A stretch of DNA of 64,000 nt, from positions 16,456 through 80,455 of the forward strand of contig JBJETQ010000002.1 of the NCBI GenBank assembly GCA_051883395.1, given 5' to 3'. The first letter of the stretch is position 1, and each line of letters begins with the position of its first letter. Shown one piece after another: positions 8,397-59,074 of this stretch. The DNA is from Christensenellales bacterium. GTDB lineage: Bacteria > Bacillota > Clostridia > Christensenellales > UBA3700. The position numbers and the translations under genes are program-made. The notes under the pieces were generated by a model, which had not been told where the DNA came from, searched no databases, and was given only the letters and a program-made list of their open reading frames with translations.

Positions 8397-8464
8397 ATTA
8401 GTCTCCGTTATGACAAAGGCGCATTGTCGGCTTGCGACAAATGCGCCCCTGTTGTCAGTCGGTA

Positions 8465-10633: not shown

Positions 10634-10785
10634 AATTCCCTCCCGAAAATATAATTTTCATTATAATATGAATTATATCATACCGTTTATCAAAAATCAA
10701 CATATAATATTGCCGAAAGATAAATTATTACCGCTTTACATATCTATCGGTTTATGTTATAATAGGTCAAAGGTGTCCGCACAAA

Positions 10786-15389: not shown

Positions 15390-16748
15390 TCAAGCATTTA
15401 CTTTCTTTGCCTTTTTCTTTTCTTTATAATCGGTAACTATCATCGCAATAGCGAAAGCAACTATAATTGCCGCAATATCTGCCAACAATATCGTCTTGAC
15501 GCTAAGTCCGTCAATCGACACAGGTTGAGCGGCTTGCAATTTGACAACGGCATTTTTGAGATTTTCAACGTCGTTGAATTCCGCAATAGCAGCATTCAAT
15601 TTTTTGGTACTTTCTTCAAGCCCTGCCGCTATAGAACTTACCATACTATCGGCGGTCGCTATCATTTTTTCTTTATCTTGTGCAGAAGCAGTAGAAAATC
15701 CCGAAGAAGCTCCGTATCCTGCCTGCAACTCTTCTATATAGGTCAATCTCTTATTTGCCGCAGCCTTTTGCGATTCCAAATCAAGCAGTTTGTTGACCAA
15801 TGCAAAATAGTTGGAGTCGTCATAGTTGAGCGTGCCGTCCTGACTTACTTTAATATTGCCAAGTCCTTCGGCAAATTTGTCCAGGCTTGCGGTTGTCGTT
15901 GTAATCATACTTGTCAAAGAAGAAATCTCGCTCTGAGTTTCGTTCTTTATCTGTTGCAAATAAGCTACTTCGCTGGAAGTAGTCGATTGACTCGATTCCA
16001 CGCCTGTTTCGCTGGCATAAGCTTTGAGCGCAATCAACATAGTCTCGTTAGTCTGCAATTCAGCCACGATATCCGAAAAAGTCATTTTCGACTCAGTCGC
16101 TCTGAAAGAAGGGTTGACCGCCGACATAGACTCCGCAACTTTGATAGAGTTGTTCATATTGTTTTCCATTGTATCAATTGCCTGAATATAATTATATTTC
16201 TTGACCGTGTCGGCACTAATCGACTGAGCATAGTTGGTATAACTATATTTATCTTTATAATTTTTGATAAACACGTCGCATATATTATCGAGCAATTCCT
16301 GTGTTTTCTCTTTCGAAAGGCCTATACTCTTACAATTTGAAAGGGTAACGGTATATGAGAAAGAAGTATTCACCTGACTGGTATCGCTAGCGTCGAAGTC
16401 GGCAGTAACCGAAATAGCGGATATTACACTTGGCAACAGTTTAATTCTTTCTTCTTCGTTCAAACCTATATTTTCAAGAGCCTGATTTACAACGTAGGTC
16501 GATTTTATTTCGCCACTCGGGTCAAACTGAGTGTTCCAAGGCGACATTCCCTTGTTGGCATATTCGTTGGCAAACATAACCTTAGCGTTATAGCTGTAAC
16601 CCTTGGTTGCGACAGAAACTATACCGAGTACCGTAGTAAGCACAACAACTGCAATCAGGGCATATACCAATATCCTTACTCCTGCCTTTTTTAGCTTTTT
16701 CCATATCATCTTGAAAGTCAACTCAGAGTTGTCATTTATCTCATCCAT
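15390..16748 (-). CDS. Bitopic membrane protein, Wzz/polysaccharide co-polymerase-like (putative)
   Basis: 452 aa with TM helices near both termini (VRILVYALIAVVVLTTVLGIV and ILLADIAAIIVAFAIAMIV) flanking a long, probably coiled, extracytoplasmic region. The call rests on topology only. Confidence 0.4.
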   Translation of the reverse strand: MDEINDNSELTFKMIWKKLKKAGVRILVYALIAVVVLTTVLGIVSVATKGYSYNAKVMFANEYANKGMSPWNTQFDPSGEIKSTYVVNQALENIGLNEEERIKLLPSVISAISVTADFDASDTSQVNTSFSYTVTLSNCKSIGLSKEKTQELLDNICDVFIKNYKDKYSYTNYAQSISADTVKKYNYIQAIDTMENNMNNSIKVAESMSAVNPSFRATESKMTFSDIVAELQTNETMLIALKAYASETGVESSQSTTSSEVAYLQQIKNETQSEISSLTSMITTTTASLDKFAEGLGNIKVSQDGTLNYDDSNYFALVNKLLDLESQKAAANKRLTYIEELQAGYGASSGFSTASAQDKEKMIATADSMVSSIAAGLEESTKKLNAAIAEFNDVENLKNAVVKLQAAQPVSIDGLSVKTILLADIAAIIVAFAIAMIVTDYKEKKKAKKVNA

Positions 16749-18624: not shown

Positions 18625-19812
18625 TCACCAACACATCTGTAAAATTTTGAGCATATCCTGCTTTTCGTACCATTTTGCCGTTGTCAACAACACGCTGTCG
18701 TCGCAAGCCAACTCGGCAATCTGTTCCAGAGATTCCTTTTTTATACCCATATCTTTGAGATTATACGGCAAGCCGTATTTTTCAAGTATCGCCTTGATAA
18801 AGCTGCACGCCTTTTCTACAAAGTATCCCGCACGCTCGTCTTTATCAATAGAATCAAACTGTTGTTTCGTTACCATATATTTAAGCAAAGTTGCATAGTC
18901 TTCGCTATCTTCGTCCAATCTCTGAGCCAGACAAACGGGGAATACTACCGCCAGCACAAGATTGTGATATGCCGTCGAGCAAGCGCAAACGGCGTTGGTC
19001 AAAGCGTGGCTCAGCCCGCCCAACGAGCTGGCAAGAGCCATGCCCGACAAGGCAGAACACTCCTGTATTTCTATACAGTTGTCTTCCGACAGCTTACCGT
19101 TTTCGACAAAGTTTTCAAGTATTTTGCTAATGATTTTGATAGAAAACAGAGCATAATTGTTGCTTATCGGATTGTATCTCTTATTAAGATAGGCTTCTGC
19201 GCTGTTTATCAACAGTTCCAGTCCGCCCAATACAAATCTGTCTTCCGGCAAAGAATTAACGAAAGCGGGGTCTAAAATACAAAAATCAGGTTGCATAATC
19301 TCCGACACAAACTCGTGTCTTGTCATTCCGTGTGGTTCAAGAATACTGGCCGTCTCGTTTATATCGCTACCGCCGCCGATAGTCGTGGCAACCACGCCGA
19401 AAGGAATATTTTCCTGTTTGCGGGCATAACCGCTTCCAAATAGCTGCGACAACTTTTTTGTTTTGGTAGCGACCATAAGTTTCAGACACTTTGCCGTATT
19501 GATAACGGAACCGCCGCCGCAGGCAATAATACTATCGCAACTATTGTCCTTAAACAACGTATAAGCTTCTTCTATCGTATCCACCGAAGAACCCCTGGGA
19601 ACGTTGACGTAGGTAGCGTTGATTCTCAGTCTGGTATTGGTGGCAACAATCTTTTTGATAACGTCAAGATACCCCAATTTTTTTATATTGCGGTCGGATA
19701 TTACCAAAATGTTTTTTGCGCCGAACGACACCATTTCTTTGGCAAGGTCTTCAATACAATCTTTGCCCGTAAGTATTTTGACTCTGTTTGAAAATTGATA
19801 AAACCTATTCAT
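18625..19812 (-). CDS. Fe-ADH family protein with a partly substituted metal site
   Basis: 395 aa. GGGSVIN replaces GGGSxxD. GGLELLINSAEAY has E and N at the usual D and H positions. GLSHAL and YHN retain the two later His residues. Confidence 0.7.
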   Translation of the reverse strand: MNRFYQFSNRVKILTGKDCIEDLAKEMVSFGAKNILVISDRNIKKLGYLDVIKKIVATNTRLRINATYVNVPRGSSVDTIEEAYTLFKDNSCDSIIACGGGSVINTAKCLKLMVATKTKKLSQLFGSGYARKQENIPFGVVATTIGGGSDINETASILEPHGMTRHEFVSEIMQPDFCILDPAFVNSLPEDRFVLGGLELLINSAEAYLNKRYNPISNNYALFSIKIISKILENFVENGKLSEDNCIEIQECSALSGMALASSLGGLSHALTNAVCACSTAYHNLVLAVVFPVCLAQRLDEDSEDYATLLKYMVTKQQFDSIDKDERAGYFVEKACSFIKAILEKYGLPYNLKDMGIKKESLEQIAELACDDSVLLTTAKWYEKQDMLKILQMCW

Positions 19813-20324
19813 AGCAAACCCCTGAACATCACTCTCGACTTGACGATAGCGGGCGCTACTTCCAGCGGCAACGACTCAGGCAAAGATTCTTTTCTTTGTC
19901 TGATGGAAGCCAGGTAGCTTTGCACTATCATCATCATTTTTATGTACTTTACAGCCAGAAGATTGTCGCCTATCGTGATAAGTCTGCCCTGCGTATATGC
20001 CTGAAAAAACGAAATCTGGTTTGCCAGGACAATTTCTTCGCTGGCAATATTTTTAAACATTATCTGCAAAGAATTGTTGGACGATATATAATCTATCACG
20101 ATTTTGCATTGCAATTCTCCGCCCACTTTCGTTATCAAAGCGGCATGATGTTTATCAAGCACTCCAATCACAAGGTCAAATCCGTCAGGCATTTCGTCAA
20201 AAATCTTTTTTACTCTGCCGTCGTATTTATAACACGCTTTGACTCCGCTAAGATAAACGTAAGAATTCAAAAGCGAAAGCGATTTTCTAATTCTCATCGG
20301 CTTTGCATAATACTTCTTATTCAT
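19809..20324 (-). CDS. SCP2 (sterol-carrier-like) domain protein
   Basis: The C-terminal half, FKNIASEEIVLANQISFFQAYTQGRLITIGDNLLAVKYIKMM, fits the SCP2 pattern. The track ORF starts at 20372. I prefer ATG 20324, preceded by AAGGAGAGAG. Confidence 0.5.
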   Translation of the reverse strand: MNKKYYAKPMRIRKSLSLLNSYVYLSGVKACYKYDGRVKKIFDEMPDGFDLVIGVLDKHHAALITKVGGELQCKIVIDYISSNNSLQIMFKNIASEEIVLANQISFFQAYTQGRLITIGDNLLAVKYIKMMMIVQSYLASIRQRKESLPESLPLEVAPAIVKSRVMFRGLL

Positions 20325-20470
20325 ACTCTCTCCTTGCTGTATATTATAACACAGCGCCCAAAAGATGTCCATATTATCAAAATTATATAACGCTTGTTTA
20401 CAATATTTTTACTTGCACCCGCTGCTCATAAACTCAACGAGTCTACACACAATATAAATAGTTTATTGTC

Positions 20471-27622: not shown

Positions 27623-30600
27623 TCAACTTATCGTCAGACCGGTATCTTCTACGTAGATAAATCCGCCATAGTTGCTACCGCTTATCAGCGTATTTCCGCT
27701 GTGTCTTACGCCGTAACCGTCCGCTTTGACTACGTTGTCAAGCACGTCCTTGATAGTCCACTTGATAGGAGTGTCCAATGTGAGTGAACCGACCTTTTCG
27801 ATACTTATGATTTCCGTTTCCATAATCTTGGTTTTGAGAGAATCTGTCGAATCGAACAACGTGGTGTCTCCTTCTTCTACGGTGCGGTTACTGTTGATGA
27901 TGTCTTGGAGAATCTTTTGCTGCTCGGCTGTCATATTGTTGAACATCAACGTAGTCGTGTATTCGGTTGAGTCAATATCGATAAATGCCGTAACGTCTAT
28001 ACTTTCAGGAAGCAAGGTCGTGGTCTTGCTCATAAGCCCCGAAGTCTTGATATTGAGTGTCAGCAACATATACGACTCACTCTCGAACGTCATACCACTA
28101 AAACCGTCTTTGACTGCCGTGGCATTGATATAGTCAGGATTGAACATCAAAACCTGCTTATAAGTTACGTCCGAAGTGCCAAGTCCCAAAGCCGACGATA
28201 CGCCGCTGCTACCGTCTTCATTGTCAAGCAACGCTGCCGCAATATTACGGTCGCTGATTTCCATAGCGACTTCTCCGTGTGGAAGCGGAGTTGCAACATA
28301 TTGTGCGCTGACCTGTTCCGACGACATCTTGTCGTCAATGGCATTGATATTATCCTGGCCGACGACGTCCGTAAGAGTGAACAACGCCTTCATCATACCT
28401 TGGAAATCTGCTTCGCTAGGTTTTACCCCGTCGCTGTAAATGTTTTTGATTGCCAGTCCGTATATAGTGGAGAAGGTAATCGTACCGCCCTGTGTGTTGG
28501 CATCGATATCTGTGGTGGAATACTCCATCTGAGTTCCTGCCGTCATTTCGCCGAGTTTGTTCTTGACCTTGTCGGAAGCGTCGGCATTGATGTCGTCAGG
28601 CGTTACAGTCTTATCTGCGACAATCTTGAAAAGATTGCAGAATACGTCCAAATCGGCATCGTCCATATCGTTGATGGTAAAGGCGGTACATACTTCGCTC
28701 GTACCTACTTTTGACAAGTCTACGTCTACGACAATTGCCACACCGCTTGGCAGCAGAGTCGCATATTTACCTGCGCTTTCGGAAGAAATATTTGCCGTAA
28801 ATACTATGCGCATCGTGCTGGCGGACGTTATGGTCAGACTTGTCATCGATACGTGTTCCAATCCTTCTGCACTTATCGTAACGTCTCCGCTGAGCAGACG
28901 GGCAAGTTCACCGCCGCTTGCTTGCGGTTTGAGAGCCACGCCGTCGTTGACGCTTCTGGTATCGGCAGCCATTGCCTGACCGTCTATCATCGTGGCATAC
29001 TTGGTTGTGATTGTGGTAATCTGCTCAGATACGTCGCCAGTTGTGTTTATCGGTGTTTTGAGATAATATTTACTGTTGATTTCTTCGGCAAATCTGCTCA
29101 TATCCGTTGCGATATTGCTTTGCGACAATTCTTCCGGAATCACGTTGACTTTTTGCAATACGCTTCTCAGTTCCACATTGGACGGTTTGGACAATTCTCC
29201 TGCGTAAATCTGACTGATTGCTATATCGAATACCGTAGTGTTGAGATTCATCACTCCGTCGCCAAACGTTATATCGATAGTTCTGTCGGCTACTATGTCA
29301 TCCATAAAGCCATAGATGTTGTCTTCGAGAGTTTGTCTTACTCCTTCTGCCGTAACTTCATTTCCGCCAAGTTTGGTAGCCACGCTGAAAAAGTTGTTCA
29401 TCTGCTCGGTGGTCATTCCGTCAATATCGAAACTTGCACAATCGACGTCGGCGCCTTCAAGCTTTTGTCTCAGCAACGCCGTATCTACCGTTACGTTGAC
29501 GTAAACCTGTCTTGGTAACAATACGGAATATTTAGCATTTTCGCCAGTCAGCTGTATCTCGCCGCTGAGTTGCATTGTCATCTGTGTTGCGGTGATACGG
29601 GTAGAAACTACCTTGATGTTTTTCATGACGCTGACAACGTTGTCGAGCTTTCCGCTGGACTGGATAAGAAATCCCAGTTCTTCCTGAGAGAGCGACGGTT
29701 TCAACTCGTCGATGTCGGTAGTATCGGTTGCCATTTTGTTGACGTCTATACTCGTCTCAAAGTTGTTTTTGATAGTAGTTACGCTGTTGAACAGAGCTGC
29801 ACCGTCGGAAGGGTCCAGCGTGTCGGTAGTGATATAGTATTTGTTTTCCAACTCGGTTACAAAGCCGACTGCGCCGACGCTTACGTTGACGGTATCTGCT
29901 TCAAAGGTATATGCCGCTTTCAACATGTCGTGCAATTGAGCGTCGTCGACAACAGGGTTATTGCTTTCGTCTTTGAGCATTCCCAGTCCCGTCGCCGTCT
30001 CGAATATCGACGGCAATATACAGCCTGTGCTTGTAAATTCTATATCCGTACCGAGTTTTTCGTTGATTTTGGTAAGATTTTCTCTCACGCTGTCTTCAAG
30101 TTTTGTAGTAAGCTCCGATATATTGAAAGAACTTACGTCGATGCCTAGTCCCGAACACAGTTTGTTGAGATTGTCAAGCAATTCCAACGTCTGCTCTTTG
30201 GTACAGTTGTTGATACAAATCTCCGTCTCTTTTTCGGCGTCGGTCAGACTTAGTCTTGCCTTGATAAATATTTGTTCAGGCAATATCTGCGGCGCAAATA
30301 TGGCAATAAGCGAACCTTCTTCCGCCTTGCCTGCAATACTCTCCAATACGTCGACTGCAATGACTACTTCCAGCATTCCTTCCGTCTGGTCATAGCTCAT
30401 ATTGAGTATCGTTATAGGAAAAGCCGACGCTTCGCTGCTGCCTGATGAGAGCTGACTGTTGAGCAAACCTGCCATAGCCAGATAGGACATCGAAACTTTG
30501 TGATTGTCGGCAATATAACTGCCGCTGTCGTAATTGAGCGTAGCAAGATTAATCTTTTCGAGCATAGCGTCGTCCTGCATCAAGCTCGTTACACTACTGA

Positions 30601-31876
30601 AAACGTTGTCGGTGGTGATAAGGTCGTCGCTGTTATCAAATCCGTATTTTGCAGTAAAGTCATCTATAAATTCTTCTACGTTCTGATTGCGCAACTGAGT
30701 GGTATATTGTGCAACGCCGACTGCGGTAGCATCAGGCAACTTGAAGTCCCTGATGAGATACAAAAACTGTGCTTCGCCCAAGTCTACGTCCAATACGTTC
30801 ATAAGCGCTTCCACAGGTTTCATATCACAACCGGAATCGACGAATGATATTGGTATTACTTCGTTGAGTTTGGCAACAACGTCTTTGACGGCATTGTTGA
30901 TTGTCTGCATTATTGGCACTTCTCCGCCCACCACATCGTTGAGCAGATTTACCAGTTTATCCATCAATTCTTTGTCAATCTGATTGATGACGACGCTTGC
31001 AGAACCGTTTTCGTCATTAGGTCTGACGTCCATGCTTACAAAAATCGTCTTTGGCAACAAACCCGACACAAACGAAGGTACGGAAGTGTTTTTCAACAGC
31101 TCGGGAGCCAGCGACGCCACGTCGATTTTGATGGTGAGAGTAAGAACTACGTCTTCCAGCTTTGCACCCGCCACGCTCTCAATGATAATCTGCGAAATAC
31201 TTACGTGTTGGAGATATTGCGCATATTGGGATATCGACGCAAGCGGAGACGACTGGTCTGTCTCTCCTTCGGCAGACTGTGTGATATAATATTGGAATAC
31301 GCTGTCTATCAAAGCGGCGAACTGTTTGTCTGTTACTTCGAGAATATTCTCCTCTCCGCTGTAAGTAGCCAATGAAGAAAAATCGAACTCTATACTTTTG
31401 AGAAGTGCGTCAAGAGCCTCGTTGCCGGTACCTTCGGGAGCAGATTCCGCCAAAACCATTGGCGTAGATTCTTCTTCTTCCGATTTGCTTGAAGACGCTG
31501 CGTCCAGTATGTCGATTATGTCAATATCGCTGTCTTCCGACAAATAGGTCTTTTTCTTGAATTCGGTATAAAAATCGTCCAAATCTGATTGGGAATACGG
31601 ATTGGTAACGATTTCGCTTTCGTTGGCTTTGTACAAAGAAGTCAATACGTTGAAGGCTTCGGATATACTAAGTCCTACCTTTGGCTCGACGTATTTTCCC
31701 CAAGCCCATATTCCGCCGCCTGCAATACCTGCTACAAGCACCACAAAAATTACTACCAAGGTAACGATACAAGATAAGCAACCGTGGCTTTTCTTTTCTC
31801 GCTTTGGCTCCTTTTTGTTCTTGCGTTTGTCGTTTGGCGTTACGTCGTCCAAATCTATTTTGTTTTTCTTTGCCAT
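27623..31876 (-). CDS. Giant single-pass membrane protein with five internal repeats of an unrecognised module
   Basis: 1417 aa. A Lys-rich N-terminus precedes one TM helix (CIVTLVVIFVVLVAGIAGGGIWAW). Five modules share a beta-like strand, then (L/I)LP-x3-(hydrophobic/polar alternation)-D, then (I/F)N(N/D)(M/C)(T/D)xE/D...L. RBS GGGAG lies 7 nt upstream. Confidence 0.8.
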   Translation of the reverse strand: MAKKNKIDLDDVTPNDKRKNKKEPKREKKSHGCLSCIVTLVVIFVVLVAGIAGGGIWAWGKYVEPKVGLSISEAFNVLTSLYKANESEIVTNPYSQSDLDDFYTEFKKKTYLSEDSDIDIIDILDAASSSKSEEEESTPMVLAESAPEGTGNEALDALLKSIEFDFSSLATYSGEENILEVTDKQFAALIDSVFQYYITQSAEGETDQSSPLASISQYAQYLQHVSISQIIIESVAGAKLEDVVLTLTIKIDVASLAPELLKNTSVPSFVSGLLPKTIFVSMDVRPNDENGSASVVINQIDKELMDKLVNLLNDVVGGEVPIMQTINNAVKDVVAKLNEVIPISFVDSGCDMKPVEALMNVLDVDLGEAQFLYLIRDFKLPDATAVGVAQYTTQLRNQNVEEFIDDFTAKYGFDNSDDLITTDNVFSSVTSLMQDDAMLEKINLATLNYDSGSYIADNHKVSMSYLAMAGLLNSQLSSGSSEASAFPITILNMSYDQTEGMLEVVIAVDVLESIAGKAEEGSLIAIFAPQILPEQIFIKARLSLTDAEKETEICINNCTKEQTLELLDNLNKLCSGLGIDVSSFNISELTTKLEDSVRENLTKINEKLGTDIEFTSTGCILPSIFETATGLGMLKDESNNPVVDDAQLHDMLKAAYTFEADTVNVSVGAVGFVTELENKYYITTDTLDPSDGAALFNSVTTIKNNFETSIDVNKMATDTTDIDELKPSLSQEELGFLIQSSGKLDNVVSVMKNIKVVSTRITATQMTMQLSGEIQLTGENAKYSVLLPRQVYVNVTVDTALLRQKLEGADVDCASFDIDGMTTEQMNNFFSVATKLGGNEVTAEGVRQTLEDNIYGFMDDIVADRTIDITFGDGVMNLNTTVFDIAISQIYAGELSKPSNVELRSVLQKVNVIPEELSQSNIATDMSRFAEEINSKYYLKTPINTTGDVSEQITTITTKYATMIDGQAMAADTRSVNDGVALKPQASGGELARLLSGDVTISAEGLEHVSMTSLTITSASTMRIVFTANISSESAGKYATLLPSGVAIVVDVDLSKVGTSEVCTAFTINDMDDADLDVFCNLFKIVADKTVTPDDINADASDKVKNKLGEMTAGTQMEYSTTDIDANTQGGTITFSTIYGLAIKNIYSDGVKPSEADFQGMMKALFTLTDVVGQDNINAIDDKMSSEQVSAQYVATPLPHGEVAMEISDRNIAAALLDNEDGSSGVSSALGLGTSDVTYKQVLMFNPDYINATAVKDGFSGMTFESESYMLLTLNIKTSGLMSKTTTLLPESIDVTAFIDIDSTEYTTTLMFNNMTAEQQKILQDIINSNRTVEEGDTTLFDSTDSLKTKIMETEIISIEKVGSLTLDTPIKWTIKDVLDNVVKADGYGVRHSGNTLISGSNYGGFIYVEDTGLTIS

Positions 31877-32103: not shown

Positions 32104-32531
32104 TGTTGCCTTTTGACACAGTATTACAACGTATATACGATACGAAGCTTGCTTGAAATACATAATACCACGGCTTGACGGCTCGGCTACGAGTAAAACG
32201 AGAAAATCGGCTAATTGGATTGAGATTGCCACGCTCGCATAGCTCGCTCGCAATGACGTAGCACTTGACGGTGGAGATGCGAGTAAGACAAGGAAAAAGG
32301 CAACTTTATCAAAGCATACGTACTAGGCGTACGTGAGCAAGAAAAGTTGCCTTTTGACACAGTATTGCGTGGTATATCCGTTGCCGACTTTTAAACAACT
32401 GCGTATTTAGACTTGATGGCTCTGATGCGAGTCAGGCGAGAAAAGCGGCAATTTTATCGACACGAGCGTACTTAGCGTACGTGAGTGAGAAAAATTGCCG
32501 CTTGACAAAGCATAACGACGCATATCCGCCG
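32104..32531. repeat. Array of degenerate ~90-150-bp repeat units containing long hairpins
   Basis: Units start with cttgaYgg at 32174, 32264 and 32412. The tail motif ttgacaNagNat...tatNcg occurs at 32113, 32355 and 32502. Long hairpins span 32296-32354 (AAAGGCAACTTT/AAAGTTGCCTTT) and 32443-32503 (AAGCGGCAATTTT/AAAATTGCCGCTT), each with an inner ACGTAC...GTACG stem. Confidence 0.8.
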
Positions 32532-35500
32532 TCAGAAATTGATAATGCCGCTGAACACTTCCACAGACGTACCCTTCAACAATACGCCGTCGTCGGTATA
32601 TCTGACTACCATATCGCCGCCTGATTGTTTGACGGTGATATCGGTATACTTTGGCAAGTAGCCGTTGAGAACTGCGCTGACCACTACCGCACAGCTTCCG
32701 CTGCCGCTGGCAAACGTTTCGCCGCAACCCTTGTCCCAGATACGAGCTTTGACGGTATGTCTGTCGATGACTTTTGCAAATTCGACGTTGGTTCGCTCTG
32801 GGAATATGCTGTCGTATTCCAGTTGGGAGCCGAGTTTGGATATATCTACGTTGTCAAGATGTTCTACAAACAATACGCAATGCGGATTGCCCATAGACAG
32901 GACGTTGAGCAGGTATTCCTTTCCGTCTACCGTGTAAGGAACGCCGATTGCGTTTTTGCCCGACAATTTGACAGGAATCTGCGCCGGTTTGAGTACCGGA
33001 GTACCCATATTGACGGTCATATACATAGCTTCTCCGTCCTGCGTCTTGATTTTGATGTCTCTGATGCCGGTAGGAGTTTCGACGGTGATGTCTAGTTTGT
33101 TGACTTTGCGGTTGTCGTAGAGATATTTTGCCACGCCGAACAAACCGTTGCCGCATACCGCTCCCTGCGAGCCGTCGCAGTTGAAAATACGCATTTTGGC
33201 ATCTGCTATCTCCGACTTTTCGATGAGAATAATGCCTTCCGCTCCCACTCCGAAATGTCTGTCGGACATTCTTACGGCAACGCCTTCCGGATTGTCTATG
33301 CTCACACCGTCCAGACAATCGAAGAAAATTCTGTCGTTGCCTGCGCTGTGCATTTTGACAAATTTGTGAGCCTGTTTGCCTTTGCGCAGCTTGTTGATGT
33401 CTACGAGTTCGGTATTATATTCGCTGTATCTGCTCATAAGACAGTTGGCAACGGCGTTGGCAGTATCTATTGACGTAAGACAAGGTATAGAACGTTCTAC
33501 CGCCTTTCTTCTTATCTTGACGCTATCACGGGTGGGAAGCTTGCCTTTGGAAGACGTGGAGATGATGTAATCTATCTTTCCGCTCTCGATGAGAGTAAGG
33601 TTGTTGTGTTCCATATTCTGATGTATTTTGTCCACCGTTACTACTTCCAAGCCCCTTTCTCTCAATACTCTTGCCGTTCCTTTGGTGGCGTAGAGAGTAT
33701 AGCCCAAATCTTCAAACTTCTGCGCAATATCTCCTATCTCCGCCTTGTCCTGATCTCGTACTGTGATGAATATTCCGCCCTTTTTCTTCATGCGGTATCC
33801 CGCCGCAACCAAACCTTTGAACAAAGCTTCTTCCAGCGTGTCAGCCAGTCCCAATACTTCTCCCGTTGACTTCATCTCAGGTCCTAACTGGGTATCTACG
33901 TTGACGAGCTTTGCAAATGAGAATACAGGAACTTTGACGGCAACGTAATTGGACTTAGGATACAGCCCTGTGCCGTAACCCATATCGGACAACTTTTCTC
34001 CAAGGATACATCTGGTGGCAAGGTCCACCATTGGCACGCCCGTTACCTTGCTGATATAAGGTATCGTACGTGAACTTCTTGGGTTAACTTCTATAACATA
34101 CAGTTCTTCTTCATAGATAAGGTATTGAATATTGACGAGTCCGACGGTATGCAGATTGATGGCAAGCATTTTGGAACACTCCACTATTCTTGCCAGCATT
34201 TCGTCGCTGAGATTCCAGGAAGGATAGACGGCAATCGAGTCTCCCGAGTGTATACCTGTTCTTTCGATGTGTTGCATTACTCCCGGAATAAGAATGTCTT
34301 CTCCGTCGCAAATTGCGTCTACTTCTATCTCCCGTCCCATAAGATATTTGTCTATAAGAACGGGGTTTTCTATCTTCTGAGAGAGTATTACGTCCATATA
34401 TTCGATGACGTCGGCGTCGGAATGGCAAACGCACATATTCTGACCGCCAAGCACGTATGACGGACGCAACAAGGTAGGATAACCTATCTTGTTGGCCACG
34501 TCCAAAGCTTCTTCTTTGGTCATTACTGTATAGCCGACAGGACGTTTGATTTGCAGTTTTTCAAGCAATTCGTCAAAGAGTTCTCTGTCTTCCGCCATAT
34601 CGATATATTCCGCCTGCGTGCCGAGAATTCTGATGTTTTTCTCCCTGAAAAGTTTGGTAAGTTTGATGGCTGTCTGACCGCCGAACGCAACCACCACGCC
34701 GTCCGGCTTTTCGGTGTTGATGATATTAAGCACGTCTTCGTTGGTAAGCGGCTCGAAGTAGAGTCTGTCTGCCGTGTCAAAGTCGGTTGATACGGTCTCG
34801 GGATTGTTGTTGACGATGACTACTTCGTATCCTTTGCGTTTGAGCGCCCATACGCAATGTACGGAAGCGTAGTCAAATTCTACGCCCTGACCTATACGGA
34901 TAGGACCGCTGCCGAAAACGATAACTTTCTTTTTGCCGTTGGAATGAGCTTTGATAAATTCTTCCGCTTCGTTTTCGCTGTCGTAGGTAGAATAGAAATA
35001 CGGCGTCTGCGCAGGAAACTCTGCGGCGCAGGTGTCAACCATTTTGTAAGAAGCATGGATAGGTCTGGTTATCTTTTTGCCGCTTATTCTTTCGATAGAA
35101 GAATCCAAAAATCCTATCTTTTTGGCTTGCAGATAGAGTTCGTCGTCAAGTTGTTGTGTGGCAAGCGCTCTTTCCATATCGATAATGTTGGCTATCTTGT
35201 TGAGAAACCATCTGTCTATTCTCGTCTTGGTGTGAATTTCGTTGACGGTTACTCCCCTTCTTAGCAATTCGTATATGACAAAAATACGTTCGTCGTCGCA
35301 AGAGAGCATTTTGTCCTGCAATTCCATATCGCTCATTGCCGCAATTTTTTTGTTGTAGAGAGTATCCATCGATATTTCCGCTCCCCTGACAGCCTTCATA
35401 AGCGCCTGCTCAAAGGAAGAACCGATGGACATTACTTCGCCCGTGGCTTTCATCTGAGTACCGAGTTGACGGCTGGCATAGAAGAATTTGTCAAACGGCC

Positions 35501-36578
35501 ACTTAGGAAATTTGACTACTATATAATCGACGCTTGGCTCGTTGCAGGCGTAAGTGCAACCCGTAACCGAGTTTCTGATTTCGTCAAGGGCGTATCCTAT
35601 GGCAATTTTGGTGGCAACCTTGGCTATCGGATAGCCCGTCGCTTTGCTGGCGAGCGCCGAACTGCGGCTCACTCTCGGATTGACTTCAATGACGGCATAC
35701 TGCATGCTGTCGGGGTGGAGAGCAAACTGAACGTTGCAACCGCCTTCGACTTTGAGTGCGTTGACTATTTTGAGAGCAGCGCTGCGCAACATTCCGAATT
35801 CTTTTTCGGACAAAGTAATTGCGGGAGCGACGACTATACTGTCGCCGGTGTGTACACCGACAGGGTCGACGTTTTCCATACTGCACACGGTGATGCAGTT
35901 GCCAAGAGAATCTCTGATGACTTCAAATTCTATCTCTTTCCAGCCGCTGATACACTTTTCGACCAATATCTGATGGATAGGGCTAAGGCGCAATCCGTTT
36001 TCTGCTATATCTTCAAATTCTTCCCTGTTGTGTGCAATGCCGCCGCCTGTGCCGCCTAACGTAAACGCAGGACGAATGATGACGGGATAACCGATTTGCT
36101 CTGCTACCATTACGCCGTCGTCCATAGTGTTGACGACTTCGGACGGAATGACGGGTTCATTGATTTGGGCAAGGGTATCCTTGAAACTCTGTCTGTCTTC
36201 CGCTCTGTCTATCGTCTCGGGATTAGCACCCAGAAGTCTGACTCCCATCTTGTCCAAAAAGCCTTCTTTTGCCAACTGCATGCTCAGCGTAAGCCCCGTC
36301 TGTCCGCCGAGAGTGGATAGCAGGCTGTCGGGACGTTCCTTTTCGATAATTCTTTTGACGGTGGTGAGAGTCAGCGGCTCGATATAAATTCTGTCTGCCA
36401 CCGCATTGTCGGTCTGAATTGTTGCCGGATTGGAATTGACAAGCACGACTTCGAGATTGTCTTCTTTGAGCGCACGACACGCCTGCGTTCCTGCGTAGTC
36501 AAATTCCGCCGCCTGTCCGATGACGATAGGTCCCGAACCGATAACCATTACTTTGTGTAAATCTTTGTTGAGTGGCAT
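32532..36578 (-). CDS. carB: Carbamoyl-phosphate synthase large subunit fused to a C-terminal DapF-like (diaminopimelate epimerase fold) domain
   Basis: 1348 aa. Residues 1 to ~1070 are colinear with CarB, with two ATP-grasp halves and an MGS-like tail ending NKLRKGKQA. The last ~277 aa (nt 32535-33368) carry DapF motifs FVKMHSAGND, NCDGSQGAVCGNG, SMGNPHCV and DKGCGETFASGSGSCA. Confidence 0.85.
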   Translation of the reverse strand: MPLNKDLHKVMVIGSGPIVIGQAAEFDYAGTQACRALKEDNLEVVLVNSNPATIQTDNAVADRIYIEPLTLTTVKRIIEKERPDSLLSTLGGQTGLTLSMQLAKEGFLDKMGVRLLGANPETIDRAEDRQSFKDTLAQINEPVIPSEVVNTMDDGVMVAEQIGYPVIIRPAFTLGGTGGGIAHNREEFEDIAENGLRLSPIHQILVEKCISGWKEIEFEVIRDSLGNCITVCSMENVDPVGVHTGDSIVVAPAITLSEKEFGMLRSAALKIVNALKVEGGCNVQFALHPDSMQYAVIEVNPRVSRSSALASKATGYPIAKVATKIAIGYALDEIRNSVTGCTYACNEPSVDYIVVKFPKWPFDKFFYASRQLGTQMKATGEVMSIGSSFEQALMKAVRGAEISMDTLYNKKIAAMSDMELQDKMLSCDDERIFVIYELLRRGVTVNEIHTKTRIDRWFLNKIANIIDMERALATQQLDDELYLQAKKIGFLDSSIERISGKKITRPIHASYKMVDTCAAEFPAQTPYFYSTYDSENEAEEFIKAHSNGKKKVIVFGSGPIRIGQGVEFDYASVHCVWALKRKGYEVVIVNNNPETVSTDFDTADRLYFEPLTNEDVLNIINTEKPDGVVVAFGGQTAIKLTKLFREKNIRILGTQAEYIDMAEDRELFDELLEKLQIKRPVGYTVMTKEEALDVANKIGYPTLLRPSYVLGGQNMCVCHSDADVIEYMDVILSQKIENPVLIDKYLMGREIEVDAICDGEDILIPGVMQHIERTGIHSGDSIAVYPSWNLSDEMLARIVECSKMLAINLHTVGLVNIQYLIYEEELYVIEVNPRSSRTIPYISKVTGVPMVDLATRCILGEKLSDMGYGTGLYPKSNYVAVKVPVFSFAKLVNVDTQLGPEMKSTGEVLGLADTLEEALFKGLVAAGYRMKKKGGIFITVRDQDKAEIGDIAQKFEDLGYTLYATKGTARVLRERGLEVVTVDKIHQNMEHNNLTLIESGKIDYIISTSSKGKLPTRDSVKIRRKAVERSIPCLTSIDTANAVANCLMSRYSEYNTELVDINKLRKGKQAHKFVKMHSAGNDRIFFDCLDGVSIDNPEGVAVRMSDRHFGVGAEGIILIEKSEIADAKMRIFNCDGSQGAVCGNGLFGVAKYLYDNRKVNKLDITVETPTGIRDIKIKTQDGEAMYMTVNMGTPVLKPAQIPVKLSGKNAIGVPYTVDGKEYLLNVLSMGNPHCVLFVEHLDNVDISKLGSQLEYDSIFPERTNVEFAKVIDRHTVKARIWDKGCGETFASGSGSCAVVVSAVLNGYLPKYTDITVKQSGGDMVVRYTDDGVLLKGTSVEVFSGIINF

Positions 36579-37636
36579 TATTTATTCTCCTTTGTCAAAT
36601 TGATAAATTGATCGTATATAAAATCGGTGGCAATCGGTCCGCCGTTGACGCCGGGCAGAAACTCGGTGGAGATTGCCCTGTAATCGTCGTATTGCAAACC
36701 TTCTACGCTTGCGTCGTTGACGTTGACGAAGGTAGGATGAAGCCCCTTTGCATCGCTTACGTCAATGTCGGTATTATGATTTTGATAAGTTACAAATAAG
36801 CGACCTGTATCGAGTTTTTTGGTAGGTTGATTGCCGTGATGTCCGTATTTCATTTCGACAATCTTTGCTCCGCATGACATTGCCATGAGCTTGTGTCCGA
36901 GACCTATGCCGAGCATAGGCAATTTTGTTCCTATCTGTCTGATGGTATCTATCACGCTTTCGCAATCTTTCACTCTATCGCTGCCTGCCGACCAGACTAC
37001 TCCGACAGGATTGCACACCATAATTTCCTGCACGCTACTGTCTGCCGACATTATTTTTACTTTCATGCCTTTATCTGCCAATGCTTCGGCTATATCGTAG
37101 GTCTCGCCCAAATCGACAAGACATACCGTTGCACCGCTGCCCATTTCTTTGCCTGCCTTGGCGCTCTTTTTGCTCGCCAGCGAAACCGTAGGAGTGTAAT
37201 TTTTCAACAGTTTCTCCTGTTCATTGTCAAGGCTTGGCGAAGTAGTGATGAGCGCATTGACGCAACCGTTGTCTCTGATGACTTTGGTGAGCATACGGGT
37301 ATCCACCCCCTTGAAACCGACTATTCCTTTGCTCTCCATAAAATTGTCGATAGCTCCGACGCTCCTGAAATTGGAAGGTTTGTCGCACACTTCTCTGACT
37401 ATTACGGCTTTGACGTGGCATTGTTTGCCTTCTACGTCGTCGTTGACGCCGAAATTGCCGAATGAAGGAAAAGTGCCGACAACGAATTGTCCCTGATAGC
37501 ATTCGTCAGTGAGCAACGTCATATCGCCGCCCATGGCGGTATTGAAAACAAGCTGTCCCACAACTTGTCTTTTTGCTCCGAAAGCCGTGCCTTCAAAGAC
37601 CTGGCCACTTGCAAGATACAAATAAAGTTTGTCCAT
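36578..37636 (-). CDS. carA: Carbamoyl-phosphate synthase small subunit homologue lacking the glutaminase catalytic triad
   Basis: 352 aa with a typical CarA N-domain (FNTAMGGDMTLLTDECYQGQFV...). The GATase region reads LGIGLGHK where GICLGHQ is expected, and STEFLPG where FQGHPE is expected. Its stop overlaps the carB ATG (TAATG). Confidence 0.8.
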   Translation of the reverse strand: MDKLYLYLASGQVFEGTAFGAKRQVVGQLVFNTAMGGDMTLLTDECYQGQFVVGTFPSFGNFGVNDDVEGKQCHVKAVIVREVCDKPSNFRSVGAIDNFMESKGIVGFKGVDTRMLTKVIRDNGCVNALITTSPSLDNEQEKLLKNYTPTVSLASKKSAKAGKEMGSGATVCLVDLGETYDIAEALADKGMKVKIMSADSSVQEIMVCNPVGVVWSAGSDRVKDCESVIDTIRQIGTKLPMLGIGLGHKLMAMSCGAKIVEMKYGHHGNQPTKKLDTGRLFVTYQNHNTDIDVSDAKGLHPTFVNVNDASVEGLQYDDYRAISTEFLPGVNGGPIATDFIYDQFINLTKENK

Positions 37637-37813: not shown

Positions 37814-37842
37814 ATGATACGACAATACTTGTCTGATGTCAA
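37814..37842 (-). promoter_or_regulatory. Sigma-A-type promoter for carAB
   Basis: The minus strand reads TTGACA-17 nt-TATCAT. Confidence 0.6.
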
Positions 37843-40484: not shown

Positions 40485-41741
40485 TTATTTCTTGACCAAA
40501 ACCTTTTTGAGACGAGCAAATCTTGGCAAGCCGTCTTCGAGCGGAGCTTTGCAATCGCCTTGAATGAGTGGCAAAGCGTAATCAACGTAGTCTTGCGAAA
40601 GCATTGTGCCGTCGTTGATAATCCACTCGGCAGGAATCTTCTTTTCGGTGTTGGCAGCCTTAGAAAGACCTACTACGCCGATTTTGCACTTATATTTGCC
40701 GTTTGCGCCCGTTGCTCTTTTGAGTACGACCATCTTGTCGGTGGTGCCTTTGACAGCATACTTAACTGCGGCTGCGCCCGACTTGAATGCTTCTTCTACG
40801 TCCACCTTGGAAGCAAGGTGTGCGCCGCATCTTTGCATAAGGCTGAATTCGATTGCTCTGGTCTTGTGTCCGAATTTCTCTTTGCACAGGTTGCTGAGTG
40901 CTGCGCCTACACCGCCGAGTTGAGCGTGTCCGAAACTATCTTTTGCAATGTTCTTGTTGAGAGTTTCTGCGATAAGTTCGCCGTTTTCGTTGGCGATACC
41001 TTCGGAGATGGCAATCATACATTTGCCGTTGTTCTCTGCAAGTTTTTTCTCTACGTCGGCAAGGAATTTGTCGGTGTTGAAAGGAACTTCCGGGAGATAA
41101 ATGAGGTCAGGTCCCAGTCCTTTGTAGTTTGCCAAAGAAGCTGCTGCGGTCAACCAACCTGCATGTCTGCCCATGATTTCTACTACCGTAATCATTGGGG
41201 TATCGTAAACGTTGGCGTCAAGTTTGAGTTCCATCATTGTAGTAGCAACGTACTTGGCTGCGGAAGCATATCCAGGACAATGGTCGGTACCGAAAAGGTC
41301 GTTGTCGATGGTCTTAGGTACGCCCATAACTCTCATTTCCCAATCGTTCTTTTTCATGAACTTACTGATTTTGTTGCAAGTATCCATAGAATCGTTGCCA
41401 CCGTTGTAGAAGAAGTATCTGATGTTGTATTTTTTGAATACTTCGAGCAATCTTCTGTAATCGGTGTCGTCCTTTTTGACGTCTTTGAGCTTGTATCTTA
41501 CCGAACCCAAAGCAGACGAAGGAGTATTTTTGAGAAGCATAAGTTCGCTCATGTCTTCTTGGGACATGTCGTAAAATTCTTCGTCAAGTACACCCTTGAT
41601 GCCGTGTGCGGCTCCGTAAACTGCGGTAATGCAGTCTTGTTTGAGTGCTTCGGTAAATACGCCCGCAGCACTTGCGTTGATAACGGATGATGGTCCGCCC
41701 GATTGACCGAACATCAATGCTCCTACCAATTTCTTTTCCAT
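40485..41741 (-). CDS. pfp: Pyrophosphate-dependent phosphofructokinase (diphosphate-fructose-6-phosphate 1-phosphotransferase)
   Basis: 418 aa with GQSGGPSSVINAS, GGNDS in place of the ATP-type GGDG, and PKTIDNDL, whose Lys is typical of PPi-PFKs. Confidence 0.75.
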   Translation of the reverse strand: MEKKLVGALMFGQSGGPSSVINASAAGVFTEALKQDCITAVYGAAHGIKGVLDEEFYDMSQEDMSELMLLKNTPSSALGSVRYKLKDVKKDDTDYRRLLEVFKKYNIRYFFYNGGNDSMDTCNKISKFMKKNDWEMRVMGVPKTIDNDLFGTDHCPGYASAAKYVATTMMELKLDANVYDTPMITVVEIMGRHAGWLTAAASLANYKGLGPDLIYLPEVPFNTDKFLADVEKKLAENNGKCMIAISEGIANENGELIAETLNKNIAKDSFGHAQLGGVGAALSNLCKEKFGHKTRAIEFSLMQRCGAHLASKVDVEEAFKSGAAAVKYAVKGTTDKMVVLKRATGANGKYKCKIGVVGLSKAANTEKKIPAEWIINDGTMLSQDYVDYALPLIQGDCKAPLEDGLPRFARLKKVLVKK

Positions 41742-41761: not shown

Positions 41762-42730
41762 TTAACTTCCTAATATTGTCGCTGTCTTATACAGCTCTTT
41801 GTTGAACACTCTCGGCATAGCCAACGCTTCGCTGATGTCGTCGTCTATGATTTGATTGTTGCGTATACCGACTACTCTACCGCCCTTGTCGGCTTTGAGT
41901 ACGTCAACTGCCCTTACGGCAAATTTGGCGGCAAGCATACGGTCCTGCATAGATGGCGCACCGCCCCTTTGGATATATCCGAGCGTCGTCGTCTTGATGC
42001 TTCCTTCAACTCCTTTTTCTTTGAGCTGAGCTTTGAGTTCTTCCGCCTTGCAGACGCCTTCGGCAAGTACGATGATGTCGGAAGTCTTGCCTAGCCTTTG
42101 ATTGCGTCTTATTCCCTTGACGACGTTGTCGATGTTGAACTCAACTTCCGGTACGAGTATAAGCTCAGCGCCACCGCCAATACCGGAATATAGTGCGATA
42201 TCACCGCATTTTCTGCCCATAACTTCGATTATACACACACGGTCGTGGGACGTCATGGTGTCTCTGAGATTGTTGATTGCTCCGAGAACGGTGTTGCAGG
42301 TAGTATCAAAGCCAAGCGTAAAATCGGTATATGCAAGGTCGTTGTCAATAGTACCCGGAATACCCACCGTCTTGACGCCGAACATATCGTACAGGTCTTT
42401 TGCGCCCCTGAAACTTCCGTCGCCGCCAATGACGACAAGTCCTTCGATGCCATAGTCGTCAAGAGCGTCTACCGCCCTTGCCATAACTTCCTTCTGGACA
42501 AACTCCGGACATCTTGCCGTTTTGAGCATTGTGCCGCCACGCTGAATGATGTCGGACACGCTACGTTTGTTCATCATGTTGATGCTGCCTTGAAGTAAGC
42601 CTACGTATCCTTGATTGATGCCGTAAACTTCAAGTCCTTGGTCAATGGCGTATCTGGTAACCGCTCTTATGCAAGCGTTCATACCCGGAGCGTCGCCACC
42701 GCTCGTCAAAACTCCTATTTTTCTCATCAT
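41762..42730 (-). CDS. pfkA: ATP-dependent 6-phosphofructokinase
   Basis: 322 aa with RKIGVLTSGGDAPGMNACIRAV, VVIGGDGSFRGA and PGTIDNDL. Its start overlaps the stop of the upstream TRAP-like gene (ATGATGA). Confidence 0.9.
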   Translation of the reverse strand: MMRKIGVLTSGGDAPGMNACIRAVTRYAIDQGLEVYGINQGYVGLLQGSINMMNKRSVSDIIQRGGTMLKTARCPEFVQKEVMARAVDALDDYGIEGLVVIGGDGSFRGAKDLYDMFGVKTVGIPGTIDNDLAYTDFTLGFDTTCNTVLGAINNLRDTMTSHDRVCIIEVMGRKCGDIALYSGIGGGAELILVPEVEFNIDNVVKGIRRNQRLGKTSDIIVLAEGVCKAEELKAQLKEKGVEGSIKTTTLGYIQRGGAPSMQDRMLAAKFAVRAVDVLKADKGGRVVGIRNNQIIDDDISEALAMPRVFNKELYKTATILGS

Positions 42731-54487: not shown

Positions 54488-55030
54488 CTACACAAATATA
54501 ACGACGAGTATTATTGGAAAAAGCGTCGAACTGAATACGAAAGGCATCATATCCTTGCCGTGTTTTTTGTATAAAAGCCAATACATAACGCCAAAAACGC
54601 CAAGTTTGCAAATAAGACTTACAAGCGGACTTCCTACGCTACGAGCCAACGGATAATACGTCCATATTATCTCAGCCACTCCCAAAACAATGGCAATGAT
54701 TATGGCGCATATCTCCACCAGCCTTACGTGCCAGTCGGAGTCGAATTGTCTGCCGAAAAAGTCAAGATTATGTCCCAACGAGCGCAATACGGAGCGTTCG
54801 AGAAACATATATATCGCATAGAAAATTGCCGCCGATAACAAAGGCATCACTACGGAAAACAACATCGTTGCGTACGATGAAGATACCAGACTGAGCAGTT
54901 GTTGTCCTTCTGACGTGTATGGCAAAATATTGCTGAAAGAACGTATGCTCCACCAGGAAGAAAACACAAGACTCAAAGCCAAAATAACTTTGAGCAAGGC
55001 ATTGATCGTTTTGTTTTTGTCTACCGCCAT
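54488..55030 (-). CDS. Hypothetical polytopic membrane protein
   Basis: 180 aa with 4-5 hydrophobic helices. It is tightly packed between holA and the lipoprotein gene. Confidence 0.55.
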   Translation of the reverse strand: MAVDKNKTINALLKVILALSLVFSSWWSIRSFSNILPYTSEGQQLLSLVSSSYATMLFSVVMPLLSAAIFYAIYMFLERSVLRSLGHNLDFFGRQFDSDWHVRLVEICAIIIAIVLGVAEIIWTYYPLARSVGSPLVSLICKLGVFGVMYWLLYKKHGKDMMPFVFSSTLFPIILVVIFV

Positions 55031-58848: not shown

Positions 58849-58935
58849 GCCGAAGTGGTGGAATTGGCAGACGCGCCGGACTCAAAATCCGGTGATGGCG
58901 ACATCGTGCGGGTTCAAGTCCCGCCTTCGGCACCA
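58849..58935 (+). tRNA. tRNA-Leu (anticodon CAA)
   Basis: Cloverleaf read by eye: acceptor GCCGAAG/CTTCGGC, anticodon stem CCGGA/TCCGG with loop CTCAAAA, a long variable arm, T-loop GGTTCAAGTCC, and an encoded CCA. Confidence 0.9.
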
Positions 58936-58937
58936 CC

Positions 58938-58975
58938 ACAGGGAAGCACATTGCTATTGTACTTCCCTGTTTTAT
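58938..58975 (+). terminator. Terminator-like hairpin between the two tRNA genes
   Basis: ACAGGGAAG-(14 nt)-CTTCCCTGT followed by TTTTAT. Confidence 0.45.
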
Positions 58976-58985
58976 AAAGACATAC

Positions 58986-59074
58986 GCAGATGTGGCGGAA
59001 TTGGCAGACGCGCTAGATTCAGGTTCTAGTGAAAGCTTTTTTTCATATGGGTTCAAGTCCCTTCATCTGCACCA
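58986..59074 (+). tRNA. tRNA-Leu (anticodon CAG)
   Basis: Acceptor GCAGATG/CATCTGC, anticodon stem CTAGA/TCTAG with loop TTCAGGT, a long variable arm, T-loop TTCAAGT and an encoded CCA. There is one T-T mismatch in the T stem. Confidence 0.8.

Follow-up and report, generated by a model that had tools for sequence, protein, structure and literature searches.

A carbamoyl-phosphate synthase large subunit fused to a diaminopimelate epimerase fold with serine at the second catalytic cysteine in Christensenellales

The carB-dapF fusion gene and its spread in Clostridia

We analysed a 64,000-nt stretch of the genome of a gut Christensenellales bacterium (assembly GCA_051883395.1, contig JBJETQ010000002.1, positions 16,456 to 80,455; hereafter the window, with positions counted from its first letter), in which CarB, the large subunit of carbamoyl-phosphate synthase (CPS), is fused in frame to a domain with the fold of the diaminopimelate (DAP) epimerase DapF. 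The fusion gene lies on the minus strand at 32532..36578 and forms an uninterrupted open reading frame (ORF) of 1348 codons with a TGA stop at 32532-32534. An earlier note, made from the sequence alone, had described a continuous 1348-aa frame holding a complete CarB and a DapF, and profile matches bear this out. The CarB portion (aa 1-1050; 33429..36578, minus strand) consists of two pre-ATP-grasp/ATP-grasp halves, an oligomerisation domain and an MGS-like allosteric domain (PF25596 and PF02786, each twice, PF02787 and PF02142), and it matches NF003671 with 1476.7 bits (cutoff 599; model positions 1-1049 of 1058) and TIGR01369 with 1451.4 bits (cutoff 1027), so that the curated cutoff, the domain set and an adjacent carA all speak for membership of the CarB family. 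The CarB C-terminal tail and junction follow (aa 1051-1071, YSEYNTELVDINKLRKGKQAH; 33366..33428, minus strand), read directly from the in-frame DNA, and lead into the DapF-fold domain (aa 1072-1348; 32535..33365, minus strand), which was assigned by TIGR00652, phmmer, AlphaFold2 (AF2), Foldseek and the ratio of nonsynonymous to synonymous rates (omega). Residues 1072-1346 match TIGR00652 with 229-234 bits (cutoff 114.65), and the domain carries two PF01678 repeats (162 bits in two stretches). The GC content is alike in the two parts (0.474 and 0.492), and the motifs quoted in the earlier note are all present, namely ...ELVDINKLRKGKQA, FVKMHSAGND, NCDGSQGAVCGNG, SMGNPHCV and DKGCGETFASGSGSCA.

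The AF2 model of aa 930-1348 has a predicted local distance difference test score (pLDDT) of 89, which exceeds 90 in the DapF part, with the low-confidence stretch confined to the CarB C-terminal tail (pLDDT below 50 at model residues 122-128, about 1051-1057 of the protein). Upon comparison by Foldseek, the model of the DapF domain matches the ligand-bound DapFs 9mro (template modelling score 0.91, root-mean-square deviation 1.9 A) and 3ejx (0.90). NCBI lists the exact window protein (MGN0770996.1) under the name 'MAG: carbamoyl-phosphate synthase large subunit [Christensenellales bacterium]', and its 90% cluster has 50 member sequences, with an identical active-site signature in 15/15 of those inspected. 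An intact fusion ORF of 1343-1348 aa is also found in nine GTDB species-representative metagenome-assembled genomes (MAGs; L001-L009, in JBJETT01, CAMBZZ01, JBJETR01, CALGRX01, CAMFVQ01, CAAGRV01, JAVXBP01, UQEY01 and CAVKLC01), and the same Ser codon together with an intact ORF occurs in the window and at least eight independent MAGs. Neither a stop nor a frameshift is seen at the junction, and the presence of the same intact ORF in nine MAGs and in the 50-member cluster indicates that the junction is no assembly error.

The fusion is not restricted to the window lineage. Searching with the junction-spanning last 419 aa of the window protein, we find the CarB tail and DapF domains together in 120/120 top matches, from Ruminococcus (including R. 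bicirculans), Oscillospiraceae, Ruminococcaceae and Clostridia MAGs. In all, the architecture is seen in over 100 protein clusters, from genomes of Ruminococcus, Oscillospiraceae and Christensenellales. The same in-frame junction, from the CarB tail to DapF strand 1, recurs in L001-L009, in P0236 (1349 aa, Oscillospiraceae, NCBI MGI6497870.1), which is a full-length canonical fusion, and in more than 100 partial proteins, and complete members of the architecture have about 1345-1349 aa. Most fused DapF domains are canonical, with both cysteines (CGNG ... ERGxGETxACGTGACA). Many of these proteins are named 'diaminopimelate epimerase, partial' at NCBI, others 'carbamoyl-phosphate synthase large subunit' at JGI, and no database name for the full-length fusions mentions the DapF domain. 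The novelty implied for the fusion by the earlier note is therefore lost, as the architecture is widespread in Clostridia and was deposited many times; we found no paper describing a CarB-DapF fusion, and the architecture is apparently undescribed in spite of these deposits. In R. bicirculans the canonical carB-dapF is followed at once by dapL (L010:1792-2997, TIGR03542 507 bits), a neighbour that would fit a working epimerase, and the gene order suggests that the fusion arose from a carB | dapF-dapL neighbourhood. Downstream of the fusion in the lineage of P0123 lies pyrG, with a 4-nt overlap.

All 120 top matches are shorter than 735 aa, owing to contig ends, long-read frameshifts and an N-run scaffold gap around CarB aa 600-615. 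A separate short MGS+DapF architecture was considered and rejected, because the 'partial' fusions are contig ends or long-read frameshifts (P0086 is fragmented by the latter), and so was a true split of carB in the P0123 lineage (731-734-aa proteins), where the frame is thrown off by the N-run gap but is in truth open throughout. Assemblies repeatedly break or carry N-runs near CarB aa 600-615 (L013:4560-4640, L014 and the P0123 lineage), and gene callers then yield false 'CarB C-half + DapF' proteins of 722-734 aa that start M(S/N)II.TEKP; the break point lies close to where the two CarB halves repeat each other (NSNPATIQTD... and NNNPETVSTD...). P0001 (441 aa, ENA, 3374-bp contig) has a serine-recombinase N-terminus (PF00239) in frame with a window-type CarB tail at 'GKIDYIISTSS', and it is probably an assembly chimera formed via a short shared peptide or k-mer, less probably a real recombinase insertion. 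P0240 (512 aa), in which the N-terminal 130 aa of an ornithine carbamoyltransferase precede a CarB tail and a DapF with Cys73 changed to Gly, may be a chimera or a rearrangement.

Several further proteins combine DapF with other partners. Three are mirror images of the window protein (P0307, 692 aa; P0383, 666 aa; P0331, 1046 aa), with a degenerate and shortened CarB-like N-part and a canonical two-Cys DapF; NF003671 scores are 55 and 399 bits (cutoff 599) and DapF scores 249 and 227 bits, and the glycine-rich loop after MPLN..KKVL is lost. Their sequences indicate that certain lineages retain DapF while the CarB half of the fusion degenerates. P0297 (776 aa) is a DapF-MurE fusion (NF001126, 515 bits), and P0250 and P0335 (687 aa) have an uncharacterised N-terminal region of about 400 aa followed by a canonical DapF.

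Active-site changes, purifying selection and recurrent cysteine loss

We aligned the window domain at residue level with four solved DapFs (2otn, 9mro, 8qzy and 3ejx); by phmmer it scores 208 bits to 2otn, with true DapFs at 150-208 bits. The alignments confirm that the first catalytic cysteine is kept and that the second reads as serine, as the earlier note had reported. The CGNG column holds Cys1142 (TGC; 33153..33155, on the minus strand as are all codons below), which is Cys73 in H. influenzae numbering and is followed by Gly-Asn. The Cys217 column holds Ser1291 (AGC, one nucleotide step from TGC; 32706..32708), in the context 'fasgsgsca' as opposed to 'qacgtgaca' in the solved DapFs. Asp1282-Lys1283 (32730..32735) stand in place of Glu208-Arg209, which in the H. 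influenzae DapF-aziDAP structures bind the distal end (stereocentre) of DAP, and Arg1083 (33330..33332) stands in place of the aromatic residue of GND(F/Y). Two clade-specific cysteines are new, Cys1134 beside Asn64 (FN-C-DGS; 33177..33179) and Cys1285 in the DKG-C-GET loop, six residues before Ser1291 (32724..32726); they fall at positions 65 and 211, which we take not to be among the described ligand-contacting residues of DapF.

Conservation was judged against 343 canonical two-Cys DapFs, in which 59 columns are at least 95% conserved; the Cys217 column is Cys in 100% of them, Glu208 is conserved in 100% and Arg209 in 99.7%. The window clade keeps 49/59 of these near-invariant columns and has changed 10/59, with few exceptions on the two catalytic helix/loop segments (MCGNGxRC has become VCGNGLFG and ERGxGETxACGTGA has become DKGCGETFASGSGS), with the fold-defining Gly, Pro and aromatic columns essentially all kept. 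The earlier note had credited the domain with every DapF landmark it knew, which is only partly so, given Asp-Lys at Glu208-Arg209, GNDR for GND(F/Y) and the ten altered columns. In H. influenzae numbering, the clade signature is F13R, x65C, E208D (Ser in L005/L006), R209K, x211C and C217S, and the window, L001-L006, P0001 and all members of clusters 1 and 2 that were inspected carry it without exception, in about 17 distinct sequences. Both new cysteines are fixed in the clade with TGC/TGT variation (Cys1134 in the window, L001-L006 and P0001), and the Ser1291 codon is AGC in the window and L001-L007. Taken as a family member, the domain exceeds the DapF cutoff and has the fold, Cys73, Asn11/64/157/190 and His159, and it lacks Cys217 and Glu208-Arg209. 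By sequence and fold it belongs in the DapF superfamily, but with two defining catalytic features lost (Cys217 and Glu208/Arg209) an annotation as diaminopimelate epimerase is not warranted.

The DapF part of the window clade has diverged much further than its CarB part. At 85-90% CarB-tail identity, DapF identity is 53-55% between the window clade and P0123, compared to 71-80% in canonical pairs, and at 70-75% CarB-tail identity it is 49% for the window clade compared to 63% for canonical pairs. To P0123, the nearest canonical relative, DapF identity is 54% as against 85% for the CarB tail, and overall the DapF of the window clade lies 14-22 points below the identity expected from CarB divergence. 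In a neighbour-joining tree of CarB tails, P0123, the window clade and the L007 group join at 100% bootstrap, and the bootstrap splits 49.5% versus 46% over a single origin of C217S in the ancestor of the window clade and L007. Among unsaturated pairs of the window clade (synonymous divergence, dS, of 0.3-0.7), omega is 0.012-0.053 for DapF and 0.013-0.019 for CarB; the corresponding values are 0.030 and 0.042 for the canonical pair P0181/P0211, and 0.059 and 0.026 for the canonical pair P0123/P0122. The CarB part has an omega of 0.013-0.027 overall, and the window clade shows no length change and no stop at dS >2. A decaying pseudo-domain was rejected, as omega (0.04-0.05) is far below 1. These rates indicate that the altered domain of the window clade is as constrained as the presumably active fused DapFs, and together with the identities they point to a burst of DapF change that was followed by constraint.

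Cysteine loss has recurred in other fused lineages. Cys73 is changed to Ala in L008/L009 and their 79-member cluster, and its column holds A, A, G, S and D in P0238, P0239, P0240, P0241 and P0242, respectively. Both cysteines are lost in P0245 (A/Y) and in P0229/P0233 (S/A), whose sequences are identical, and the L007 lineage (L007:1605-5645, L017:301-4341; cluster 3, several Clostridia MAGs) has Ser at both Cys columns with the further changes N64G, N75S, N157D and N190D. The DapF of the L007 lineage carries 6 nonsynonymous versus 24 synonymous changes, as compared with a neutral expectation of 78% nonsynonymous (p = 2.4e-11), and it is by sequence a clear pseudoenzyme domain on CarB. Omega for DapF and CarB, respectively, is 0.065 and 0.034 in the L007 lineage, which has no cysteine, and 0.045 and 0.023 in L008/L009, with Ala at Cys73. 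In samples gathered with a query that was itself a fused variant, fused DapFs have lost a catalytic Cys more often (19/147) than standalone ones (4/219; p = 3e-5), as also after de-replication (odds ratio 6-10, p <= 0.002) and among 50%-identity representatives (5/21 fused versus 4/115 standalone, p = 0.005). Since the constraint is equally strong in sister lineages that have Ala at Cys73 or lack cysteine altogether, constraint does not imply catalysis, and selection on the fused DapF is independent of the Cys dyad. No paper on a DapF pseudoenzyme in bacteria was found, nor, in the open literature, one joining 'diaminopimelate epimerase' with C217S or C73S; neither a conserved Cys/Ser clade nor a pattern of recurrent cysteine loss with selection maintained appears to have been described.

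Operon context and the remainder of the window

The fusion gene is preceded by carA, the CPS glutamine amidotransferase small subunit (352 aa; 36578..37636, minus strand; PF00988 and PF00117; NF009475 307.8 bits, cutoff 221), whose stop overlaps the carB start by 1 nt (..aataaATGcca..), and the operon appears to be carA-carB/dapF. Upstream of carA, a sigma-70-like promoter match (TTGACA-17-TATCAT, 11/12; 37814..37842, minus strand) is a consensus match only, as is a weak terminator-like hairpin that starts from the stop codon (32513..32534, minus strand), a kind of hairpin found in a number equal to the shuffle expectation. A purF-like gene and asnA lie divergently upstream of the operon. About 650 nt downstream of the fusion is a 1417-aa ORF (27623-31876, minus strand) without a Pfam or NCBIfam match, whose counterpart in L001 (12258-16505, 1415 aa) has the same position. 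Rfam finds only two tRNAs in the window and no riboswitch or attenuator near the operon.

By tblastn, no second dapF is present in the 64-kb window or in the L001-L009 loci (about 150 kb), and dapL, lysA and ddh are absent among the 41 window ORFs scanned; an aminotransferase at 329-1519 was considered as DapL and rejected, being of the PRK06836 type. Elsewhere the window encodes an aspartate kinase, murB, an alanine racemase and a D-amino-acid transaminase-like gene. The two tRNAs are tandem tRNA-Leu genes (58849-59074, plus strand; anticodons CAA and CAG), the sole Rfam matches at the gathering threshold. The ORFs at 15390-16748, 19809-20372 and 54488-55030 (all minus strand; 452, 187 and 180 aa) have no Pfam match, and the 452-aa one has no NCBIfam match either. 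At 8432-10654 (plus strand) and 8465-10633 (minus strand), a pair of ORFs, each above 720 aa, cover nearly the same stretch; the latter is sulfatase/LTA-synthase-like (PF00884) and the former is probably a shadow ORF. Finally, two phosphofructokinase genes stand in tandem at 40485-41741 (418 aa) and 41762-42730 (322 aa), both on the minus strand, with PF00365 scores of 206 bits for the longer and 353 bits for the shorter.

Possible roles of the altered domain and likeness to known systems

Judged from their sequences, carA and the fusion gene would encode a normal glutamine-dependent CPS, whose large subunit bears a C-terminal DapF fold inherited from an old carB-dapF fusion that spread widely in Clostridia. 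Most carriers, such as R. bicirculans, keep all catalytic and DAP-binding residues and presumably have a working DAP epimerase. The window lineage has lost the two-thiol pair through the change of Cys217 to Ser and has Asp/Lys for the distal Glu208/Arg209, and the domain is most probably no longer a normal DAP epimerase, because Cys-to-Ser changes impair DapF-fold racemases and Glu208/Arg209 are invariant in the canonical enzymes. Cys-to-Ser changes in racemases of this fold greatly reduce turnover, and the open form tends to persist (PMC11602996). The window domain is still a module with a confidently modelled fold, under purifying selection no weaker than that on canonical copies, and on the simplest reading its role would not need two-base chemistry; since related lineages are under selection with the other Cys or both gone, that role is most likely non-catalytic. 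We tentatively favour, at a little short of even confidence, retention of the domain as an appendage that serves the synthase in structure, oligomerisation or ligand sensing. DapF is dimeric, and the candidate roles would be structural or oligomerisation support, or ligand sensing beside the CPS allosteric domain, although the nature of the non-catalytic role is speculative. A more specific version, in which the fold is a ligand-sensing (for a DAP-like amino acid) or oligomerisation module that regulates CPS, or else runs a so far undescribed one-base reaction in the reshaped Cys/Ser pocket with its two new cysteines and Arg, we regard as possible but doubtful. Of the options in the earlier note, an inactivated or regulatory domain and a different chemistry match those left open here, but nothing was found in favour of a carbamoylated substrate, and the match to the O-ureidoserine racemase DcsC is much weaker at 111 bits compared to 150-208 bits for true DapFs. 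Cultured Christensenella species have a wall with LL-DAP and not meso-DAP (PMC7937921), and if this holds here, epimerase activity would matter for lysine synthesis alone and might not be essential.

Several observations weigh against a non-catalytic appendage. Cys73, His159 and Asn11/64/157/190 are all kept in the window, and the Cys73 codon varies between TGC and TGT within the clade, indicating that this cysteine is maintained. The new cysteines at 65 and 211 and Arg13 are fixed clade-wide, the substitutions at 208/209 keep charge, and L005/L006 pair E208S with N157E (GNPH to GEPH; aa 1231 and 1282 in window numbering), by which the acidic group may have been relocated within the pocket, a hint of selected ligand binding. 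Retained and remodelled residues of this kind suit a pocket that was reshaped and is still at work better than an idle one, and continued enzymatic use would likewise give an omega that matches the canonical domains. Nor does a second dapF stand in the loci searched. The AF2 model has a predicted template modelling score of 0.68, a low-pLDDT tail and no confident CarB-DapF interface, so that it supports neither a particular relative orientation of CarB and DapF nor their physical integration, and the fused and standalone samples behind the enrichment of cysteine loss were collected with a fused query.

A reshaped pocket would suit a neofunctionalised one-thiol enzyme, with Cys73 as the single base and Ser217, Arg13, Asp208/Lys209, Cys65 and Cys211 binding a DAP-like alpha-amino acid for unidirectional epimerisation, alpha-proton exchange, or beta-elimination/dehydration. 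Targeted active-site changes are fixed across about 20% domain divergence with the backbone-binding Asn residues, His159 and Cys73 kept, a burst followed by constraint is the usual signature of a functional shift, and DapF homologues have changed substrate repeatedly (HisR, CntK, DcsC). Precedents exist in analogous cofactor-independent racemases, a Cys/Thr Asp/Glu racemase being unidirectional and glutamate racemase catalysing stereospecific elimination once Cys is mutated to Ser (PMC8142540), and in the 3-hydroxyproline dehydratases, which share the fold (6r76, 4k7g; Foldseek). However, no candidate substrate or partner gene is seen among the neighbours (carA, the purF-like gene, asnA and the 1417-aa ORF), and sister fusions that have Ala at Cys73, or no cysteine, are constrained to the same degree, which leaves this enzyme unlikely. 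Residual DAP epimerase activity, making the protein a bifunctional CPS/DapF with Ser217 as a poor acid/base helped by Arg13, or with Cys1285 or Cys1134 replacing Cys217, draws on much of the same evidence: the TIGR00652 score of 229 bits is well over the cutoff, purifying selection equals that on canonical domains, the Asn ligands, His159, Cys73 and the charge at 208/209 are conserved, the two new cysteines were fixed together with C217S, and no other dapF is present in the loci searched. Koo et al. are said to have found in 2000 that in H. influenzae DapF a little epimerase activity survives in Ser mutants but not in Ala mutants. We nevertheless consider it unlikely as well, as Cys217, Glu208 and Arg209 are all changed though near-invariant in the 343 canonical sequences, Cys-to-Ser greatly lowers turnover in the DapF fold (PMC11602996), and there are lineages that persist although Ala, Gly or Asp at Cys73, or the lack of both cysteines, keeps them from being epimerases. 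That the domain is an inert decaying remnant, or an artefact (lost stop, frameshift, sequencing error or assembly chimera), is highly improbable. Metagenome assemblies of the fusion gene are error-prone, as the frameshifts of P0086, the N-run of P0123 and the chimeric P0001 attest, but the same ORF and Ser codon stand in the window and at least eight MAGs and in 15/15 inspected members of the 50-member cluster; an assembly artefact or lost stop was rejected on the strength of the same ORF in nine MAGs and that cluster.

Were the appendage a regulatory module, it would couple cell-wall or lysine precursor status to pyrimidine/arginine precursor supply, and the repeated independent loss of Cys in fused copies would mark an enzyme-to-pseudoenzyme transition across a Clostridia family. 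The fused proteins form a natural series, from both Cys to either one to none, with purifying selection at every measured stage, which would be useful for following how a fused enzyme becomes a pseudoenzyme or gains a function, and what CPS gains from a DapF fold. One-base chemistry, too, could readily be tested on a DapF whose Cys/Ser pair is natural, fixed and accompanied by compensating changes. Annotation is affected as well: with names such as plain CarB or 'DapF, partial', reconstructions of gut Clostridia may miss the only dapF where the fusion is canonical, and they may also credit an epimerase where the copy cannot work normally (the window clade, L007 and L008/L009).

Among known systems, the fold has a precedent as a protein partner. 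In E. coli, DapF serves as a non-catalytic, protein-binding or regulatory partner of RppH, and Foldseek retrieves the RppH-DapF complexes (6d13, 6vck); that DapF is a separate and catalytically competent protein, whereas the window domain is fused to CarB and catalytically altered. Stand-alone DapFs (2otn, 9mro, 3ejx and 1gqz) share with it full-length homology, the two-lobed fold, Cys73-Gly-Asn, GNPH and Asn11/64/157/190, and differ in that the window domain has Ser217, Asp/Lys at 208/209, Arg after GND and a CarB tether. The histidine racemases HisR and CntK and the O-ureidoserine racemase DcsC (7vdy) illustrate retargeting of the fold via distal-site residues, but they keep both cysteines, whereas the window domain has one and is closer to true DapFs. 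Engineered H. influenzae DapF C217S (2q9j) has the same substitution in the same column and fold, and the C67S and C209S mutants of HisR, also of the DapF fold, are strongly impaired (PMC11602996). These are point mutants made in the laboratory in sites that are wild-type apart from the one change, whereas the window serine is natural, fixed, accompanied by nine more changes at near-invariant columns, and under purifying selection. In a Cys/Thr Asp/Glu racemase of pathogenic E. coli and in 3-hydroxyproline dehydratases, one Cys is replaced by a hydroxyl residue and the chemistry is unidirectional or eliminative (PMC8142540); the proline-racemase family shares a DapF-like fold, but at only 13-16% identity to the window domain the likeness is an analogy only. 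The canonical Clostridia fusions (P0236, and P0181/P0187 of R. bicirculans) have the architecture, junction (…ELVDIN…R…K-F-x-K-M…) and length of the window protein, carA directly upstream, and a CarB tail 70-85% identical to its own, and they differ in keeping Cys73, Cys217, Glu208, Arg209 and GNDY where the window clade has its six-residue signature.

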